22,668 bases of DNA from a virus (Duplodnaviria; Heunggongvirae; Uroviricota; Caudoviricetes): positions 1 to 22,668 of IMG/VR virus record IMGVR_UViG_2778260991_000002; one strand, 5' to 3'. The notes beneath the pieces were generated by a model. It had not been told where the DNA came from. It saw nothing but the letters and a program-made list of their open reading frames with translations, and made no database searches. Numbering within the stretch: position 1 is the stretch's first letter; each line of letters begins with the position of its first letter. The translations under genes were made by a program, and so were the position numbers. Shown here piece by piece: positions 123 to 7,388 of the stretch.

Positions 123-491
123 TTGATGCGTGATATTCAGATGGTTCTGGAGCGTTGGGGGGCATGGGCGGCGAGTGATAGTTCAGGCGTTGATTATTCA
201 CCTATAGCTGCTGGGTTTAAGGGACTTCTTCCCTATACAAGCAAGAAACGCTTGGCTTGTTCGGATAGTGATGCCTTAATTATTGAAGGTTGTCTTGCTC
301 GTCTAAAGCAAAAAAGGCCGGACGAACATTCGCTTCTTGTTGCCCATTACCTATACGGTATCTCTAAAAGAAAGCTCGCCAAGGCTCGTAAAAAAGATGA
401 GAAATTGATACGTATAGAAATACAGCTAGCCGAAGGATTTATTGATGGCTGCCTTTCCATGCTAGATCTAACATTAGATTTGGACGTTTAA
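123..491 (+). CDS. Q: Late-gene antitermination protein Q, short QuuD/phage-82-like type (122 aa), not the lambda Q type
   Basis: 122-aa ORF starting MMRDIQMVLERWGAWAA..., recalled as the N-terminus of the short Q antiterminators of E. coli lambdoid prophages. SD-like GGTGGAGAAAG upstream of the ATG at 123 (second ATG at 126). Position immediately upstream of the lysis region fits Q. Confidence 0.8.
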   Translation: MMRDIQMVLERWGAWAASDSSGVDYSPIAAGFKGLLPYTSKKRLACSDSDALIIEGCLARLKQKRPDEHSLLVAHYLYGISKRKLAKARKKDEKLIRIEIQLAEGFIDGCLSMLDLTLDLDV

Positions 492-520
492 TAATACGCC
501 CCTGCATGGGGCGTATTATT
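490..520. terminator. Strong hairpin between convergent Q and KAP NTPase genes; candidate bidirectional intrinsic terminator
   Basis: Perfect inverted repeat AATACGCCCC (493-502) / GGGGCGTATT (508-517) with loop TGCAT, extendable to about 13 bp (490-520). Overlaps the Q stop (489-491) and the minus-strand KAP stop (520-522). Flanked by moderately U-rich sequence on both strands. Confidence 0.55.
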
Positions 521-1851
521 TACTGGATGAATGACATTTGATTAATATATTTTATCAATAACTCTCTGGGGGTAGTACTCCAAAAATTTATGTGTTCATA
601 ATCAGTATAAACATTTGTGAATTTTTTAAGTTCTTCATCACTTTTAGGGGCAAATCGCTCATTAAGAGTAATACTGTCTTTAATTATTCCGAAGAATACA
701 ATGGATATTTCAGGGATTTGCGATCTTCTCTCATAAGAATAAGGTATTTCTTTTATGTTAAGCAGGTCTGCTAAATAAGATATAGATTCAGCGGTAATTT
801 CTTGTTTTAGTTTTTCCTTGTTACCAAAGCAATGTATGAAGGCAGCTACGACAAAGATCATATTTATTAAAGGATTACTGCTTTTGTTCTCATCGTCGTT
901 TAACAGTTGAAAAATGTTAAGATTGCGTGAAAATGTTTGTGTTTCACGTAATGATAAGTTGGTTCGTTGAATTAAATCACGGATAAAGTAACCTGATAAT
1001 CTATTGATTTTATTCAATAACCTTGTTTTTTCTACAAGATAATCCCAATATATAACAGAGGCTTTACATACGTTGTGACCATTTATCAAACATGTATCTG
1101 GAAGCGTGATGGTATATTTTATAAACTTGTCAAGATATTTTTGTGAGTTAATGCTATAACCATAAATATGATTTATAGATGCTTTTAATTGTTCTGTGTT
1201 TGTAACTAAAATAAAAAAGACATTATTGATGTCAAAAATGTGTTTTATTGTTTCAATAACATTTGTTGAAAAACTCGGCTTACATCGGTCTAATTCATCA
1301 ATTATAATTACGATTTTTTGATTTTTTGATATACTTTCGATGCAGGATTTAAGTGAATTTATGTTTTTCTCTGAGTCCATATGGTCTTCAAGCAAATTTT
1401 CAATAGTCCCATCTATTGCTGCATTGCTTGCTTTCTTCATCGCATCTTGGAATTCTTCGGCAACTTCACTAGCCTCCTGTCGTAAAAACCAACCTGCACC
1501 AGCTTTTAGTACCGTTTTTAAACCAAAGCGAATTGCAGGAAGAGATCTCTTAATGAAGTGTTGTTTTTCTTCCTCAGGCAAAATGCTGGCAATTGCAGAG
1601 GTTATGAGAAGTAATGGAGATTCTGCATGATCCCCTTTAAAGGCATCAATATAAACAACTTTAGATTCAGTTTCTTGCTCAATAATGAGATTTTTCAGTT
1701 TGATACTAAATTCTGTTTTCCCTGTTCCCCATGCGCCGTCTATTACCAGTGGTGAAATGTCTGCCTCTGGTTTTAGCAACTTGATGATATTTTCAGCGAT
1801 GTTTCTTCGTTGGAACTCGTCACGTTCAGTGAAAGATAGTGTATCTAACAT
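520..1851 (-). CDS. KAP-family P-loop NTPase (PifA-like), 443 aa; accessory gene, candidate phage-exclusion/defence protein
   Basis: Walker A with the KAP-typical tryptophan, GAWGTGKT, near the N-terminus, and Walker B IVIIIDELDRC (the DELDRC KAP hallmark). Local GC is much lower than the flanks (about 25% in a sampled 60-nt stretch at 1141-1200, against roughly 55-60% in the structural genes). Opposite strand to all phage late genes. Confidence 0.75.
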   Translation of the reverse strand: MLDTLSFTERDEFQRRNIAENIIKLLKPEADISPLVIDGAWGTGKTEFSIKLKNLIIEQETESKVVYIDAFKGDHAESPLLLITSAIASILPEEEKQHFIKRSLPAIRFGLKTVLKAGAGWFLRQEASEVAEEFQDAMKKASNAAIDGTIENLLEDHMDSEKNINSLKSCIESISKNQKIVIIIDELDRCKPSFSTNVIETIKHIFDINNVFFILVTNTEQLKASINHIYGYSINSQKYLDKFIKYTITLPDTCLINGHNVCKASVIYWDYLVEKTRLLNKINRLSGYFIRDLIQRTNLSLRETQTFSRNLNIFQLLNDDENKSSNPLINMIFVVAAFIHCFGNKEKLKQEITAESISYLADLLNIKEIPYSYERRSQIPEISIVFFGIIKDSITLNERFAPKSDEELKKFTNVYTDYEHINFWSTTPRELLIKYINQMSFIQ

Positions 1852-1974
1852 AATATAAACCTATTAACTCCTACAGTAAAAAACGAATAATACGACTTTG
1901 GGATTAAAAATCATTAACCCGGTCCGCAAAAATTCTTGTAATCTGTTAAGAGTGGTTACTTCGCCACACAGCTT

Positions 1975-1999
1975 AAACCCGCCGTCGAGCGGGTTTTTT
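1975..1999 (+). terminator. Rho-independent terminator-like hairpin followed by a T6 run
   Basis: AAACCCGC (1975-1982) pairs with GCGGGTTT (1989-1996) around loop CGTCGA, then T-run to 1999. Lies in the non-coding gap between the KAP gene start and the wHTH/methyltransferase genes, oriented for plus-strand transcription. Confidence 0.55.
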
Positions 2000-2121
2000 G
2001 TACCTGTAAACCAAGAGCAGTACGGTAAACACGCTGGTGGTCGTGAATACTGACTTTTTATCTTGCTGGCTTTTTAGACAAGAGTTATTGGTATGTCATG
2101 TTAACCAGAAGGGAAAAAGAC

Positions 2122-2465: not shown

Positions 2466-3518
2466 ATGAAAAATACTGTAAAAATAAACAGTGTTGATTT
2501 AATCAACGCTGATTGCCTGCATTTTATTCAGTCCCTGCCTGATGACTCCATTGATCTGATTGTTACCGATCCACCGTACTTCAAAGTGAAGCCCAACGGC
2601 TGGGACAATCAGTGGAAAGGGGACGAAGATTACCTTAAGTGGCTGGACCACTGTCTGGCCCAGTTCTGGCGGGTGTTGAAACCTGCCGGAAGCCTTTACC
2701 TGTTCTGTGGACATCGCCTGGCATCTGATATCGAGATCATGATGCGTGAACGTTTCAATGTGCTTAACCATATCATCTGGGCGAAGCCGTCCGGACGTTG
2801 GAATGGGTGTAATAAAGAAAGTTTGCGCGCATATTTTCCTGCCACAGAGCGCGTTCTGTTTGCTGAACATTACCAGGGGCCATATCGCGGCAAAAGTGAC
2901 GGCTATGCGGCAAAAGAAAGGGAACTCAAACAGCACATAATGGCACCGCTGATATCGTATTTCAGGGATGCTCGTGCCGAACTGGGTATAACGGCAAAAC
3001 AGATTGCCGAAGCCACAGGTAAGAAAAATATGGTTTCCCACTGGTTTGGTGCCAGTCAGTGGCAGTTGCCGAATGAGGCTGACTACCGGAAGTTGCAGGC
3101 ACTTTTTTCCCGTATAGCGGCAGAGAAGTTTCAGAAACAACAACTGGAACAACCACACCACCAGCTGGTGGCATCTTATGATTCACTGAATCGCAAATAT
3201 TCTGAATTGCTGGATGAGTTTAAATCTCTCCGGCGCTATTTCTCCGTATCAGTCTCCGTGCCTTATACCGATGTCTGGATGCATAAACCCGTTCAGTTCT
3301 ACCCGGGTAAACATCCGTGTGAGAAACCGGCGGATATGCTCAGGCAAATAATCAACGCCAGTAGTCGACCAGGTGATCTGGTTGCTGATTTCTTTATGGG
3401 ATCCGGTTCCACAATAAAAGCAGCAATGGCGCTGGGGCGTCGGGCGTTAGGTGTTGAGCTTGAGTCAGAGCGGTTTAACCAGACGGTGAAAGAGGTAAGT
3501 GAACTGGTGGGGAAATAA
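2466..3518 (+). CDS. DNA methyltransferase, beta-class amino-methyltransferase (N6-adenine or N4-cytosine; DPPY suggests N6-adenine), 350 aa, no cognate endonuclease seen
   Basis: Motif IV IVTDPPYF near the N-terminus and AdoMet-binding motif I FFMGSGST near the C-terminus, which is the beta-class order. The central region between them is the presumptive target-recognition domain. No restriction endonuclease gene adjacent. Confidence 0.85.
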   Translation: MKNTVKINSVDLINADCLHFIQSLPDDSIDLIVTDPPYFKVKPNGWDNQWKGDEDYLKWLDHCLAQFWRVLKPAGSLYLFCGHRLASDIEIMMRERFNVLNHIIWAKPSGRWNGCNKESLRAYFPATERVLFAEHYQGPYRGKSDGYAAKERELKQHIMAPLISYFRDARAELGITAKQIAEATGKKNMVSHWFGASQWQLPNEADYRKLQALFSRIAAEKFQKQQLEQPHHQLVASYDSLNRKYSELLDEFKSLRRYFSVSVSVPYTDVWMHKPVQFYPGKHPCEKPADMLRQIINASSRPGDLVADFFMGSGSTIKAAMALGRRALGVELESERFNQTVKEVSELVGK

Positions 3519-3568
3519 TTCTGGTGTCAGAGCTTTTATTCGCTAATTTTTTCACTGGGAGGCTATTT

Positions 3569-3826
3569 ATGCATTCACACCATCATCAAATATCTATGAT
3601 CCCACTTACCATGAGTTCACCCATTAAAGGTTTTTCACTGTATGTAGAAAGCGAAGACATGGCTGTCGCTATAGCTGAGCTTGAAAATGCCTTATCACAG
3701 CTCAAGAATGGAAATAAGGCATTCAAAGAAAGTGGCACGCTGGTTGGTAACGTCAGAGCAAGTTATTGCTATCCTTACCGTCCTCATTGTGCCGCGAAAG
3801 GTCTTTATTGGGATGAAGGGGATTAA
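3569..3826 (+). CDS. Hypothetical protein, 85 aa
   Basis: ORF 3524-3826; start at ATG 3569 preferred because of strong SD GGGAGG (3557-3562) 6 nt upstream. Stop TAA 3824-3826 overlaps the stop of the convergent gene. No recognisable motif. Confidence 0.5.
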   Translation: MHSHHHQISMIPLTMSSPIKGFSLYVESEDMAVAIAELENALSQLKNGNKAFKESGTLVGNVRASYCYPYRPHCAAKGLYWDEGD

Positions 3827-4347
3827 GCAAGGACTTGTTCACCGATAGTTACTGGTAACGGACAAATGTATTCCCAGACTGGATCAGGGTTAAAAGTTTT
3901 TCCTGACCAGTAAAGTTCCATTCTGTAGGTGAATTCCAATACCGATGTATCATTTCTTAATAATGACATATCTCCGCGATGATAACTATCTGTTTGTATT
4001 ATGAAAATTTTATCTGATGGTTTTCCGTCTGTAAGTCGAAAATGTTTAGCCTCCTCCAGGTTACCCCAGGCGAAGAGTGACGTATAGCGAGAAGGTTTTT
4101 GCGGGCAAACTCCTCTTCGGTAAAACTCAAGTCCCCAGTCGATGAGTTCGTTTTTATTATAAATTTTTGCCGCATTATTAATGAGGTATCCTTCGCCTTG
4201 TGGAGCAAGCCCGCGCGGAAAAAGTTTGTCTACCAGAGATGACATTTCAACAGGAGTTATATCGGAGAATTGCTTTGGTGTAACGATATCGCCTGTTGAG
4301 TATATTCCTCGGCGATCAACCATAAATAGTTTCATTAATTTCTCCAT
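3823..4347 (-). CDS. Hypothetical protein, 174 aa, cytoplasmic (no signal peptide), moderately AT-rich accessory gene
   Basis: Uninterrupted 174-codon ORF on the minus strand; sampled GC about 37%. Convergent with the 3569-3826 gene and sharing the 4-nt TTAA stop overlap (3823-3826). No family recognised by eye. Confidence 0.6.
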   Translation of the reverse strand: MEKLMKLFMVDRRGIYSTGDIVTPKQFSDITPVEMSSLVDKLFPRGLAPQGEGYLINNAAKIYNKNELIDWGLEFYRRGVCPQKPSRYTSLFAWGNLEEAKHFRLTDGKPSDKIFIIQTDSYHRGDMSLLRNDTSVLEFTYRMELYWSGKTFNPDPVWEYICPLPVTIGEQVLA

Positions 4348-4575
4348 TGATAGTTGTTACTTTTGGCGATGTAACGATATCAAACGAGAATTTATATCGC
4401 CAGATGCTTAATCTGACACTTCATCTGACCCTAGTATGTGCCGTTTTTTTTATTTAAGGCCGCTGACAGGTCCATTTAGTGCGACGCCTTTCCCCGTTTC
4501 CGCTCCTGGAATATTCGGGGATTTTTTATTCCCTCAATTTGCACCCGCGATATGTGCGAGGTGAGAGATGACGAA

Positions 4576-4911
4576 ATGCCTCATAACCCAAATACCTGGC
4601 CGGACTGGCTGGAGTTGTTCCAGAGCTGGTGGCGTGGAGACACACCACTGGGCGCAGTGATTATGTCGATCGTTATGGCTGGTTTACGTATTGCCTATTT
4701 TGGCGGCGGTGGCGGCTGGAAACGAAAAACACTCGAAATTTTGCTCTGTGGTGCTCTGACGCTGACATTTGCATCCGCTCTTGAGTATGTCGGATGGCCT
4801 AAATCGCTTTCTGTTGCCATTGGTGGTGGCGTGGGGCTGATCGGTGTCGATGCTATTCGTGGGGCTGCAATGCGAGTAATCGGTAACAAATTTGGTAGCT
4901 CGAAGGAGTAA
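4576..4911 (+). CDS. Class I holin (three predicted TM segments), not lambda S-like in sequence
   Basis: ORF 4552-4911. ATG at 4576 preferred (SD GAGGTGAGAG at 4558-4567); upstream in-frame ATG at 4552 could give a longer antiholin-like form. Three hydrophobic stretches (LGAVIMSIVMAGLRIAYF, TLEILLCGALTLTFASALEYVGW, LSVAIGGGVGLIGVDAI) and a charged C-terminus. Immediately precedes endolysin R. Confidence 0.7.
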   Translation: MPHNPNTWPDWLELFQSWWRGDTPLGAVIMSIVMAGLRIAYFGGGGGWKRKTLEILLCGALTLTFASALEYVGWPKSLSVAIGGGVGLIGVDAIRGAAMRVIGNKFGSSKE

Positions 4912-4914
4912 TTT

Positions 4915-5391
4915 ATGCAGGCACTAAATTCCCAGCGTAAAGCTTTCCTTGATATGGTGGCATGGTCAGAAGGAACGGATAACGGGAGACAACCGACACG
5001 TAACCACGGTTATGACGTTATTGTCGGTGGCGAACTCTTCACTGATTACTCCGATCACCCTCGAAAACTTGTCACGCTAAATTCGAAAATCAAATCAACA
5101 GCAGCCGGACGTTACCAACTCCTTTCCCGTTGGTGGGATGCCTACCGCAAGCAGCTTGGTCTGAAAGACTTCTCTCCGAAAAGCCAGGACGCTGTTGCAC
5201 TGCAGCAGATTAAAGAGCGTGGCGCTTTACCGATGATTGATCGCGGTGATATTAGTCAGGCTATCGATCGTTGCAGCAATATCTGGGCTTCACTGCCGGG
5301 CGCTGGTTATGGTCAGTTCGAGCATAAAGTTGACAGCCTGATTGCAAAATTCAAAGAAGCAGGCGGAACGGTCAGAGAGATTGAGGTATGA
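4915..5391 (+). CDS. R: Endolysin R (lambda-type lytic transglycosylase), 158 aa
   Basis: Near-identical to recalled lambda R (…[52 protein letters not shown]…). Start 4 nt after the holin stop; its stop overlaps the Rz start. Confidence 0.95.
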
Positions 5392-5831
5392 GCAGAATAA
5401 CCGCGATTATCTCCGCTCTGGTTATTTGTATCATCGCCTGCCTGTCATTGGCTGTTAATCATTACCGTGATAACGCCATCACCTACAAAGAACAGCGCGA
5501 CAAAGCCGCATCCATTATCGCTGACATGCAGAAGCGTCAACGTGATGTAGCTGAACTCGATGCCAGATACACAAAGGAGCTTGCTGATGCTAACGCGACT
5601 ATCGAAAGTCTTCGTGCTGATGTTTCTGCTGGTCGTAAGTGGCTGTACGTCAAAGCAGTCTGTCCGGACATGCATAAAACCACCGCCGCCTCCGGCGTGG
5701 ATGATGGCGCCAGCCCCAGACTTACTGACACCGCTCAACGGGATTATTTCGTTCTCAGAGAGCGCATCGAAACCATAACTAACCAATTGAATGGCCTGCA
5801 AGAGTATGTGAGATCACAGTGTTCATATTAG
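5388..5831 (+). CDS. Rz: Spanin inner-membrane subunit Rz (i-spanin)
   Basis: N-terminal TM segment [20 protein letters not shown], then a coiled-coil region; matches lambda Rz. ATGA overlap with the R stop. Confidence 0.9.
5587..5778 (+). CDS. Rz1: Spanin outer-membrane lipoprotein subunit Rz1 (o-spanin), embedded in the +1 frame of Rz
   Basis: ORF 5560-5778 lies wholly inside Rz in another frame. ATG at 5587 preferred (SD AAGGAG 7 nt upstream). Lipobox-like LVVSGC followed by TSKQSV and a proline-rich stretch PPPPPAW, as in lambda Rz1. Confidence 0.8.
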
Positions 5832-5869
5832 AAAAGTCTTATCATAAGATTTTTGTATATGGATGCATT

Positions 5870-6244
5870 ATGTCTCAATACGCGCGCGCCGCTTTAATTG
5901 CTTATTATTTGGTTGCTGATAATTCAATATCCCCTCGTGATGCATGGGATGCTGCTGTCGCTGAGGTTACAGAAAGCGAATCGGCAAGAAAGAAGGGATG
6001 CCCAAGGGCAACGTTTCTCGCTCTGGCGGATAGCGGTTATCTGAAGAAAGTAAAACCACATCATGGGGAGAAAAAGATCGGTAAGTTGTACCAAAGGGCA
6101 ATTGAAGTTGCGAATCTGATTCTTGATTTACCCGGAATTAGCAAAGCTGAGCTAGTTGATAAAGCTTGCTATAAAGACAGGCAAGGGTCTTATGACATTG
6201 CTCTAACTCTCGCTCAGTGCGGATTACTCCAGCGTCCTCAATAA
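5870..6244 (+). CDS. Hypothetical protein (about 124 aa) downstream of the lysis cassette, at the position lambda uses for bor/accessory genes
   Basis: ORF 5819-6244 opens with a GTG inside the Rz 3' end; the in-frame ATG at 5870 is the more likely start (weak SD GGA). Followed by a terminator-like hairpin. No motif recognised. Confidence 0.45.
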   Translation: MSQYARAALIAYYLVADNSISPRDAWDAAVAEVTESESARKKGCPRATFLALADSGYLKKVKPHHGEKKIGKLYQRAIEVANLILDLPGISKAELVDKACYKDRQGSYDIALTLAQCGLLQRPQ

Positions 6245-6262
6245 GATATTAAGTGATTTATG

Positions 6263-6286
6263 GCCTCGCTTTTAGCGGGGCTTTTT
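6263..6286 (+). terminator. Rho-independent terminator-like hairpin
   Basis: GCCTCGC (6263-6269) / GCGGGGC (6275-6281) with one G-U pair, loop TTTTA, then T5 (6282-6286). Directly after the 5870-6244 ORF. Confidence 0.5.
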
Positions 6287-6342
6287 CATATCTGAATCTC
6301 ACCATGCATATCATCACCTGACTGGAACGTCAGGAGAATTCG

Positions 6343-6525
6343 TTACGGGGATTCGATAAAGGTATTCAAGCCTGACACATTATGCGCTGTATCGTCGCCG
6401 TATTCCCGCATTAACCATGACCGTAGCCCGACGGGGAATTCCTTCTGCGCGAGTGTGCGGGAATAATCAAAAACGATGCACACCGGGTTTTTACCGCGTT
6501 TATGATTCGCGGGTTTGTCACTCAT
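6343..6525 (-). CDS. Small hypothetical protein (about 60 aa; ORF extends to 6594), possibly a small prophage protein of the kind found just upstream of cos in other lambdoid prophages
   Basis: Minus-strand ORF 6343-6594; the internal Met at 6525 gives MSDKPANHKRGKNPVCIV.... The equivalent lambda region is non-coding as far as I recall, so this may not be a real gene. Confidence 0.25.
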   Translation of the reverse strand: MSDKPANHKRGKNPVCIVFDYSRTLAQKEFPVGLRSWLMREYGDDTAHNVSGLNTFIESP

Positions 6526-6679
6526 GCTCGCCAGTCCTGTGCGGGGGTGGAAGAAACAGGACGTGTATTCAGGTCTGTGCGACCGTGGTCGCACGACTTT
6601 GGTCGTTCAGATATTAAATCCCATTGCGAAGTAAACCCGAATTGCTGGCGGGTCCTTTCCGGCAATCCAGAACGTTACG

Positions 6680-6691
6680 GGGCGGAAGGCT
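6680..6691 (+). other. cosN, the 12-nt cohesive-end site: GGGCGGAAGGCT here, against GGGCGGCGACCT in lambda
   Basis: Flanks match the recalled lambda ends closely (…CGTTACG | 12-mer | CGCGGGTTTTCGCTATTTATGAAAATTTTCCGGTTTAAGG…), and Nu1 starts about 190 nt downstream as in lambda. The 12-mer differs from lambda at positions 7-10. Confidence 0.65.
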
Positions 6692-6868
6692 CGCGGGTTT
6701 TCGCTATTTATGAAAATTTTCCGGTTTAAGGTGTTTCCGTTCTTCTTCGTCGTAACTTAATGTTTTTATTTAAAATACCCCCTGAAAAGAAAGGAAACGA
6801 CAGGTGCTGAAAACGGGCTTTTTGGCCTTTGTCGTTTCCTTTCTCTGTTTTTGTCCGTGGAATGAACA
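6692..6868 (+). promoter_or_regulatory. cosB region (terminase small-subunit binding elements and IHF site) between cosN and Nu1
   Basis: Near-identical to the recalled lambda left-end leader (CGCGGGTTTTCGCTATTTATGAAAATTTTCCGGTTTAAGG...GAAAGGAAACGACAGGTGCTGAAA...), ending at the Nu1 ATG. Individual R and I1 elements not delimited. Confidence 0.55.
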
Positions 6869-7388
6869 ATGGAAGTCAACAAAAAGCAGCTGGCTGACAT
6901 TTTCGGTGCGAGTATCCGTACCATTCAGAACTGGCAGGAACAGGGAATGCCCGTTCTGCGAGGCGGTGGCAAGGGTAATGAGGTGCTTTATGATTCTGCC
7001 GCCGTTATAAAATGGTATGCCGAAAGGGATGCTGAAATTGAGAACGAAAAGCTGCGCCGGGAAGTTGAAGAACTGCGGCAGGCCAGCGAGACAGATCTCC
7101 AGCCAGGGACTATTGAGTACGAACGCCATCGACTTACGCGTGCGCAGGCCGACGCACAGGAGCTGAAAAATGCCAGAGACTCCGCTGAAGTGGTGGAAAC
7201 CGCATTCTGTACTTTCGTGCTGTCGCGGATCGCAGGTGAAATTGCCAGTATTCTCGACGGGATCCCCCTGTCGGTGCAGCGGCGTTTTCCGGAACTGGAA
7301 AACCGACATGTTGATTTCCTGAAACGGGATATCATCAAAGCCATGAACAAAGCAGCCGCGCTGGATGAACTGATACCGGGGTTGCTGA

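Follow-up and report, generated by a model that had tools for sequence, protein, structure and literature searches.

Single-gene defenses built on a KAP-type P-loop NTPase have been described before, namely EF_KAP and three metagenomic KAP proteins (PMC13552941) and Reve (PMC13586616), and mechanisms have been reported for PifA and Tmn (bioRxiv 10.64898/2026.03.01.708804). Here we analyze a KAP gene located at positions 520 to 1851, on the minus strand, of a 22,668-nucleotide stretch of viral DNA (positions 1 to 22,668 of IMG/VR virus record IMGVR_UViG_2778260991_000002, hereafter the window), which is the right arm of an E. coli lambdoid prophage. We consider it probable that this gene is a prophage-borne anti-phage defense consisting of a single protein; we have much less confidence in any particular output step of that defense. 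Every line of context evidence points to this function: the gene occupies a slot that holds other defense-type cargo in sibling prophages, its relatives are placed either in the cI-int interval of 186-like prophages or within operons for Type I restriction-modification (R-M), and its product matches a candidate defense family of PADLOC.

That candidate family, PDC-S20, has the same single-gene architecture of about 445 amino acids (aa). What defined the PDC systems was that their genes are embedded in loci for BREX, DISARM or Type I R-M ("guilt-by-embedding"; Payne et al., bioRxiv 10.1101/2024.01.29.577857), whereas the window copy lies in a lambdoid slot beside the antiterminator gene Q. A literature search for the name PDC-S20 returned no papers, and the text of the Vassallo et al. 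preprint makes no mention of KAP, P-loop or NTPase.

The exclusion of phage T7 by PifA is triggered by gp1.2 or gp10. PifA and the window protein are both KAP-type P-loop NTPases without transmembrane helices, each encoded by a single gene on a mobile element, and a first-pass annotation of this DNA, made from the letters alone, had called the gene PifA-like. The likeness holds for the NTPase domain, where the PADLOC model of PifA matches aa 7-252 (E = 6.3e-18, profile positions 13-255 of 720), but goes no further. PifA is far longer, with a different C-terminal region and a different replicon and operon context (pifA is found on an F-like plasmid, the KAP copies are chromosomal), and orthology was rejected because the similarity is limited to this domain. 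The output described for PifA is membrane depolarization and nucleotide leakage (bioRxiv 10.64898/2026.03.01.708804).

EF_KAP, from Firmicutes, and the three metagenomic KAPs are likewise single proteins that join a KAP P-loop NTPase to a C-terminal region whose fold is unknown. Defense by EF_KAP requires both the Walker B motif and the C-terminal region (PMC13552941). Its two transmembrane helices and 322-aa C-terminal region set it apart from the window protein, which is soluble and has about 125-180 aa after the NTPase. Reve, a KAP protein of P4 hotspots that is reported to protect against several phage families (PMC13586616), is also a single P-loop NTPase with a C-terminal region of unknown fold, although we liken it by description and not by sequence. 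The other E. coli clusters of the present family are found in 186-like prophages, not in P4 satellites.

QatA and Tmn (YobI family) are P-loop NTPases related to KAP or compared with it in defense. Tmn senses a phage protein through its C-terminal arms and acts by ATP turnover (bioRxiv 10.64898/2026.03.01.708804). It carries two transmembrane helices within the P-loop domain and forms a membrane decamer, whereas the window protein has no transmembrane segment and no PADLOC Tmn match at E ≤ 1, and membership was rejected on both counts. QatA was also rejected, since the NCBIfam equivalog, whose cutoff is 600 bits, scored only 34.4 and the surroundings contain no QatBCD genes (the neighbors are Q and the late-region leader). 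Among solved structures, the nearest to the predicted model is RdrA of the RADAR system (PDB 8fnt, 8fnu and 8hr8), at a sequence identity of 11-15%. RdrA is a protein of about 800-850 aa whose partner is the adenosine deaminase RdrB, whereas the KAP protein is half that size and no RdrB-like gene was found near its gene; RADAR/RdrA membership was rejected for these two reasons.

Family assignment and architecture of the NTPase

The gene and the two parts of its product are placed in the window as follows.

520 to 1851, minus strand: KAP-family P-loop NTPase gene, an open reading frame (ORF) of 443 aa with an ATG start, member of PDC-S20 and of PHROG family phrog_8614
1102 to 1851, minus strand: conserved NTPase core (aa 1-250), an alpha/beta core with Walker A, Walker B and a KAP-specific insertion (aa ~95-175)
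523 to 1062, minus strand: C-terminal region (aa 264-443), an AAA+ lid and a fast-evolving bundle of about six helices

The antisense ORF with KAP-type Walker A and Walker B motifs described by the first-pass annotation was borne out. Walker A (GAWGTGKT) is located at aa 39-46 (nucleotides 1714-1737) and Walker B (IIIDELDRC) at aa 182-190 (nucleotides 1282-1308), the latter with the KAP-typical DELDRC extension, and residues G39, W41-K45 and D185-C190 do not vary among 37 aligned homologs. The Pfam model KAP_NTPase (PF07693), with a gathering cutoff of 20 bits, matches aa 15-317 at 238.9 bits (E = 9.4e-71, profile positions 1-292 of 293), which places the protein within the KAP family. RefSeq names the gene "KAP family NTPase" in 50 E. 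coli genomes. The first-pass annotation had been unable to assign the gene to any named defense system; PADLOC model PDLC04956 (PDC-S20) matches it over its full length (aa 3-442, profile positions 4-449 of 450, E = 3.7e-177), and by this match the protein belongs to an already catalogued candidate family and is not an unassignable one.

The strong AT richness that had been remarked on is also real, with a GC content of 0.31-0.32 in the KAP gene, while the Q region has 0.45 and the structural genes reach 0.5-0.6. Compared with the Salmonella ortholog, the ratio of nonsynonymous to synonymous substitution rates (dN/dS) is 0.14 overall, 0.08 in the N-terminal part and 0.25 in the C-terminal part. 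Purifying selection acts on the gene, which is intact and conserved. Identity to the homologs ranges from 51 to 95% over the N-terminal 250 aa and from 18 to 88% over the C-terminal 193 aa.

The protein is soluble and compact. Its C-terminal 250 aa had been taken as the part lying beyond the NTPase and proposed as the place to look for an effector or sensor domain, but the Pfam match reaches aa 317, which leaves about 125-180 aa as the non-NTPase part, and structure prediction returned only a lid and a helical bundle in the C-terminal region. In the AlphaFold2 model, built on the 37-sequence alignment (pLDDT 81.5, pTM 0.76), the lid comprises three helices at aa 264-317, with a conserved LSLRE motif and invariant R302 and R309. 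Within the KAP-specific insertion, which separates Walker A from Walker B, aa 99-116 (nucleotides 1500-1555, minus strand) make up a conserved cationic amphipathic segment, FIKRSLPAIRFGLKTVLK, with a hydrophobic moment of 0.58, about 2.3 standard deviations above the protein mean. At aa 99-125 the insertion has an amphipathic and not a hydrophobic character, and its residues P105, A106, T113, K116, A117, and L123 are invariant, while aa 113-151 (nucleotides 1399-1515, minus strand) are conserved in sequence yet modeled with a pLDDT below 50. A sequence profile of the protein compared with all PDB chains gave no match.

The compact architecture extends to the family at large. A profile search of 1.84 billion cluster representatives recovered 3,407 proteins at E ≤ 1e-30, a set that includes broader KAP relatives. 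Among the best 150 of these (representatives of 50%-identity clusters), about 130 are roughly 410-545 aa long and match most of the profile, about 20 are truncated (186-373 aa), and none carries an added domain.

Relatives beside cI of 186-like prophages and within Type I R-M operons

Relatives with 43-47% identity were found in P2/186-like prophages of E. coli and Yersinia, located between cI and int and on the same strand as cI. They form three distinct allelic clusters in E. coli and one cluster in Yersinia (loci L012-L018 and L102-L105, with the KAP gene at 5001-6338 or 6001-7332). In two of the loci (P0101 and P0102), the KAP gene starts 31 nucleotides after cI, an arrangement that suggests cotranscription with the immunity repressor. 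The lysogenic operon organization of 186-type phages is established, and on this basis we infer that the KAP gene of the 186-like prophages is transcribed in lysogens. The interval between integrase and primase has been described as a minor defense hotspot of P2 phages, with 8% of the P2 systems (PMC13586616), and the position of the KAP relatives between cI and int falls within this interval.

More distant relatives are found in a different context. A scan of GTDB genomes recovered full-length homologs with 36-42% identity in Shewanella, Alteromonas, Psychrobacter, Aliidiomarina, Vibrio, Neisseria, and others, with a recurrent order of ORFs of about 505 aa, about 400 aa, the KAP protein, and about 1,097 aa. 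A bulk Pfam scan of 105 neighboring ORFs from 20 loci identified 13 HsdS, 8 HsdM, 5 HsdR, 2 Abi_2, and 2 RhuM proteins, and the order hsdM-hsdS-KAP-hsdR was confirmed by individual scans in three loci (L024, L030, and L046, with the KAP gene at about 3960-5335), the genes overlapping or being separated by 0-23 nucleotides. Together with six further loci (L025, L033, L029, L034, L043, and L023), these represent the hsd-embedded arrangement in marine Gammaproteobacteria, with ORFs that overlap or nearly abut. The R-M-embedded members match PDLC04956 over their full length at E values of 1e-172 to 1e-185. The embedding by which PDC-S20 is recognized is thus present in these relatives, while the window copy itself is not embedded. 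The family as a whole is repeatedly placed in positions typical of defense genes.

This arrangement is reminiscent of the prr locus, in which prrC lies between hsdS and hsdR and PrrC works with EcoprrI. The KAP protein could, in the same style, be a guard or back-up module of a host Type I R-M complex that fires when a phage anti-restriction protein disables the R-M system, which would still be a form of defense, although its trigger would depend on a partner and not on sensing a phage protein directly. In about 9 of the 20 distant loci, hsdM and hsdS directly precede the KAP gene on its own strand, overlapping or lying 0-23 nucleotides apart, and in five hsdR also follows directly; the R-M-embedded and prophage copies are, by the PADLOC model, one family. 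However, the enteric prophage copies are solo, with no adjacent R-M gene, and the DNA methylase at 2466-3518 of the window is an orphan. The likeness to PrrC is one of position: PrrC and RloC fuse an ABC-type ATPase to a HEPN nuclease, whereas the window protein has an AAA+/KAP fold and no nuclease domain, with neither a HEPN/anticodon-nuclease domain nor an Rx4-6H motif, and membership in PrrC/RloC was rejected on these grounds. Many unrelated defense genes are also embedded in such loci (bioRxiv 10.1101/2024.01.29.577857). We regard a guard role as quite unlikely and favor a defense that the KAP protein exerts by itself.

The slot between Q and the putative late promoter

The KAP gene belongs to an exchangeable module that follows Q and precedes the late-region backbone.

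468 to 1905, no strand: swappable module of about 1.4 kb that takes in the 3' tip of Q, the terminator and the KAP gene with the nearest part of its upstream region
123 to 491, plus strand: gene of antiterminator Q (122 aa; Pfam Phage_antitermQ, E = 1.8e-52), convergent with the KAP gene; context, not cargo
490 to 520, no strand: bidirectional terminator-like hairpin, arms 490-502 and 508-520, loop 503-507, perfect 13-bp stem, both flanks U-rich
1852 to 1917, minus strand: upstream region of the KAP gene with a putative promoter, -35 TTAATG at 1917-1912, 18-nucleotide spacer, -10 TATTAT at 1893-1888, and AGGAG at about 1868-1872
1906 to 2001, plus strand: backbone common to siblings of the same Q type, putative late promoter/Q-utilization region and tR'
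L020:2170-3621, L021:2015-3569 and L002:2012-3400, minus strand: alternative antisense cargo after Q in sibling prophages

BLASTN comparison with sibling elements placed the homology junctions at 467/1906 (phage cdtI), 469/1897 (E. coli EC190486), 232/1948 (MEI008), and 98/1976 (SfV). The first two share the Q type of the window, and the Q of SfV differs. In place of the KAP gene, the slot of cdtI carries a 313-aa DUF6731 protein and a 147-aa ORF, that of EC190486 a 289-aa protein matching PADLOC PDC-S42 (E = 8e-33) and a 140-aa ORF, and that of MEI008 a 483-aa ATPase-TOPRIM protein matching HEC-04 (E = 3.9e-47), all of them antisense; the slot of SfV has no cargo. HEC-04 is an experimentally validated defense that needs its Walker A motif and the metal site of its TOPRIM domain (bioRxiv 10.1101/2024.01.29.577857). 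The KAP gene is an autonomous, AT-rich, antisense, and exchangeable cargo of the lambdoid prophage, and it is plausible that the slot after Q is an undescribed lambdoid defense hotspot located between Q and the late promoter pR'.

The KAP gene had been placed within the late region. The segment 1975-1996 forms a stem followed by a T-run that resembles tR' (-12 to -13.7 kcal/mol, z = -1.75), and TTAACC-16-TGTAAT at 1915-1942 is, in our own reading of the sequence, the putative late promoter. Positions 1906-1975 are common only to phages with the same Q type (cdtI and EC190486), SfV shares homology only from 1976, and its annotation includes a rho-independent terminator at the equivalent of 1976-2011. 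Because of this Q-type-limited sharing and the SfV terminator, we read 1906-2001 as the late promoter/Q-utilization region and tR'; the block is probably pR', the Q-binding/pause region, and tR'. It follows from this reading that the KAP module lies between Q and pR', upstream of both pR' and tR' and outside the late operon. The backbone block (…GCGGACCGnGTTAAT…CTTAAGAGTGGTTACTT…) is conserved from E. coli to Klebsiella, covaries with the Q type, and ends in a terminator. RefSeq annotates Q in the sibling genomes as "antiterminator Q family protein".

The strong hairpin shared with Q that had been noted in the first pass was confirmed: its stem at 490-520 folds with -22.1 kcal/mol on the plus strand and -20.8 kcal/mol on the minus strand (z = -5.4 and -6.3), and none of 200 shuffled sequences did as well. 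It overlaps the stop codons of both Q (489-491) and the KAP gene (520-522), is 100% conserved at the Salmonella locus (7332-7362 of L004), and insulates the KAP gene from Q. On the other side of the gene, the putative promoter draws its -10 from the cassette and its -35 from the shared backbone, and in the sibling cargoes, too, a -10-like hexamer of their own is found about as far away; the block upstream of the KAP gene is conserved in Salmonella, Citrobacter, and Klebsiella.

At ≥95% identity, the KAP gene is present in 50 of 5,426 complete E. coli genomes, at 53 places that are all chromosomal. In strain LH10-b-1 it is intact (99.8% identity) within a badly decayed prophage with a truncated terminase and a truncated DUF968 gene. 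The convergent Q-KAP pair, with a gap of 28-38 bp, is also found in Salmonella (92% protein identity), Citrobacter (65%), and Klebsiella (61%). The association of the two genes is old, since the whole Q-KAP-pR' block aligns with about 70% DNA identity in Citrobacter. The Salmonella ortholog (L004:6001-7332, on a Typhimurium contig) belongs to a cluster of 2,139 sequences and lies in a remnant prophage next to Q, a DUF968 gene, an LRR-NEL effector and an OafA-like acyltransferase, a neighborhood that resembles SPI-12, a pathogenicity island of Salmonella. By gene order, this ortholog would be STM2238; the literature refers to STM2238 only as a "putative phage protein".

Such a stable partnership could also mean that the KAP protein serves the life cycle of the phage, in late transcription, the commitment between lysis and lysogeny, or induction, and not the defense of the host. 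The convergent arrangement with its short gap and shared hairpin has been kept from E. coli to Klebsiella, the Q-KAP-pR' block codiverges, the putative KAP promoter would overlap the -35 region of pR' on the opposite strand, and the Salmonella ortholog lies beside Q in a locus like SPI-12, where the Q gene, STM2239, reportedly drives expression of the island and fitness. However, the same family is found in 186-like prophages and R-M operons without any Q, the slot holds unrelated cargo or nothing in siblings of the same or other Q types, and the gene remains intact even where the terminase and most structural genes of the prophage are gone. We therefore consider a role linked to Q or the late promoter very unlikely, and a cargo that defends the host accounts for the locus better.

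The rest of the window has the layout of a lambdoid late region, with a second cargo module that is separate from the KAP unit.

2098 to 2316: small conserved late-leader ORF (72 aa) between tR' and the methylase, phrog_331, with weak TrmB/winged-helix similarity
2466 to 3518, late strand: N6/N4 DNA methylase, orphan and Type II-like
3527 to 4540, no strand: second cargo module between the DNA methylase and the holin
3524 to 3826, plus strand: 100-aa ORF without matches
3823 to 4347, minus strand: antisense ORF of 174 aa, phrog_5663 match (E = 8e-58), no Pfam or PADLOC match
4552 to 4911: holin
4915 to 5391: 158-aa ORF without a Pfam match, at the position of the annotated lysozyme in sibling prophages, with Rz next
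5819 to 6244: DUF6979 gene, after Rz

The antisense ORF at 3823-4347 means that the KAP gene is not, as had been stated, the only gene of this region on the opposite strand. The module that contains it has a GC content of 0.40-0.42, is present in 25 of the 5,426 E. coli genomes, and is absent from SfV, MEI008, and EC190486 (junctions 3526/4541). A "beta family protein" and an "sce7726 family protein" are annotated in the matched region of other KAP-carrying E. coli genomes, whether within 3527-4540 or elsewhere. Downstream of the DUF6979 gene are Nu1/terminase and the structural genes, and tRNA and Rfam scans of the window gave no matches.

A probable single-protein defense and what it would mean

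If the KAP gene is a defense, the lysogen would transcribe it from its own weak promoter, back-to-back with pR'. The AAA+-like core, the lid, and the small helical domain probably assemble into an NTP-dependent ring or oligomer, by analogy with RdrA, and the fast-evolving helical bundle at the C terminus may be a specificity element that recognizes a phage protein, in parallel with EF_KAP and Tmn. Because there is no effector domain, the output would be the NTPase itself or an interaction with the membrane or a partner. On the speculative side, it might be a drain of ATP or other NTPs, as reported for Tmn, a contact made through the amphipathic insert, which may lie where other KAP proteins have transmembrane helices, that leads to a PifA-like collapse of membrane and nucleotides, or the remodeling or sequestering of a phage or host complex. 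Either the drain or the collapse would be expected to arrest the infected cell or the infecting phage.

Several observations weigh against a defensive function. The PDCs are described by their source paper as "145 untested phage defence candidates" (bioRxiv 10.1101/2024.01.29.577857). We found no effector fold in the C-terminal ~180 aa and no catalytic residues conserved outside the NTPase. Many KAP proteins have transmembrane helices associated with the NTPase domain, but none was found here: the Kyte-Doolittle mean over 19 residues peaks at 1.53, in a C-terminal helix that is buried, and the idea of a transmembrane KAP was rejected on that value. The C-terminal dN/dS of 0.25 reflects relaxed constraint and not demonstrated diversifying selection, so that positive selection on this half of the protein is unsupported. 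The tight and long-standing linkage to one Q type across genera may instead stem from a role connected with Q. Among 50,697 deposited phage genomes there is no homolog above 29% identity, the single match at 44% being a Salmonella houtenae genome contig. Prophages, in contrast, carry the gene widely, and these carriers may be rarely induced or isolated, or many of them may be defective. As for its expression, the autonomous cassette with its own promoter proposed by the first-pass annotation stands as an exchangeable AT-rich module, but the promoter is no more than plausible: the -10 and -35 assignment is a sequence reading of ours, and a consensus scan returned 7 promoter sites against 6.7 expected by chance and gives it no support. 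This promoter and terminator scan performed at chance level, and its rules missed the hairpin at 490-520.

It is highly improbable that the gene is a selfish or neutral moron (addiction-like, engaged in competition with satellites or plasmids, or a hitch-hiker without benefit in a recombination-prone slot), as its low-GC foreign composition, its patchy presence in 50 of 5,426 E. coli genomes, its absence from isolated phages, and the plasmid-borne KAP proteins such as PifA that act in conflicts between elements might suggest, given the strong purifying selection (dN/dS of 0.14), the compact architecture kept in about 130 of the best 150 cluster representatives, the repeated placement of the family in defense-typical positions, and the lack of an adjacent antitoxin-like partner.

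The defense reading could be carried considerably further. PDC-S20 would then represent a new class of "effector-less" immune NTPases, in which a soluble KAP ring of about 445-aa subunits with only a small hypervariable helical sensor acts through its NTPase or the conserved amphipathic insert, with no nuclease, pore, or NADase, and the interval between Q and pR' would be an undescribed defense hotspot whose antisense cargoes share a backbone -35 that is back-to-back with pR', their expression being coupled to the occupancy of the late promoter. We consider this combination unlikely as a whole.

As it stands, the KAP gene is an expected kind of prophage cargo from a candidate family that is already catalogued, with an effector-less architecture. 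The neighborhood of Q is where Shiga toxin (Stx) phages carry their toxin genes, and if the present reading is true, the Q-proximal slot of lambdoid prophages would be added to the defense hotspots. The protein would also provide an unusually small, single-domain-effector system in which to study how a KAP/AAA+-like NTPase alone stops a phage. Should the gene protect lysogens, this would provide the first functional data for PDC-S20, a large family found in prophages and R-M operons across Proteobacteria and beyond.

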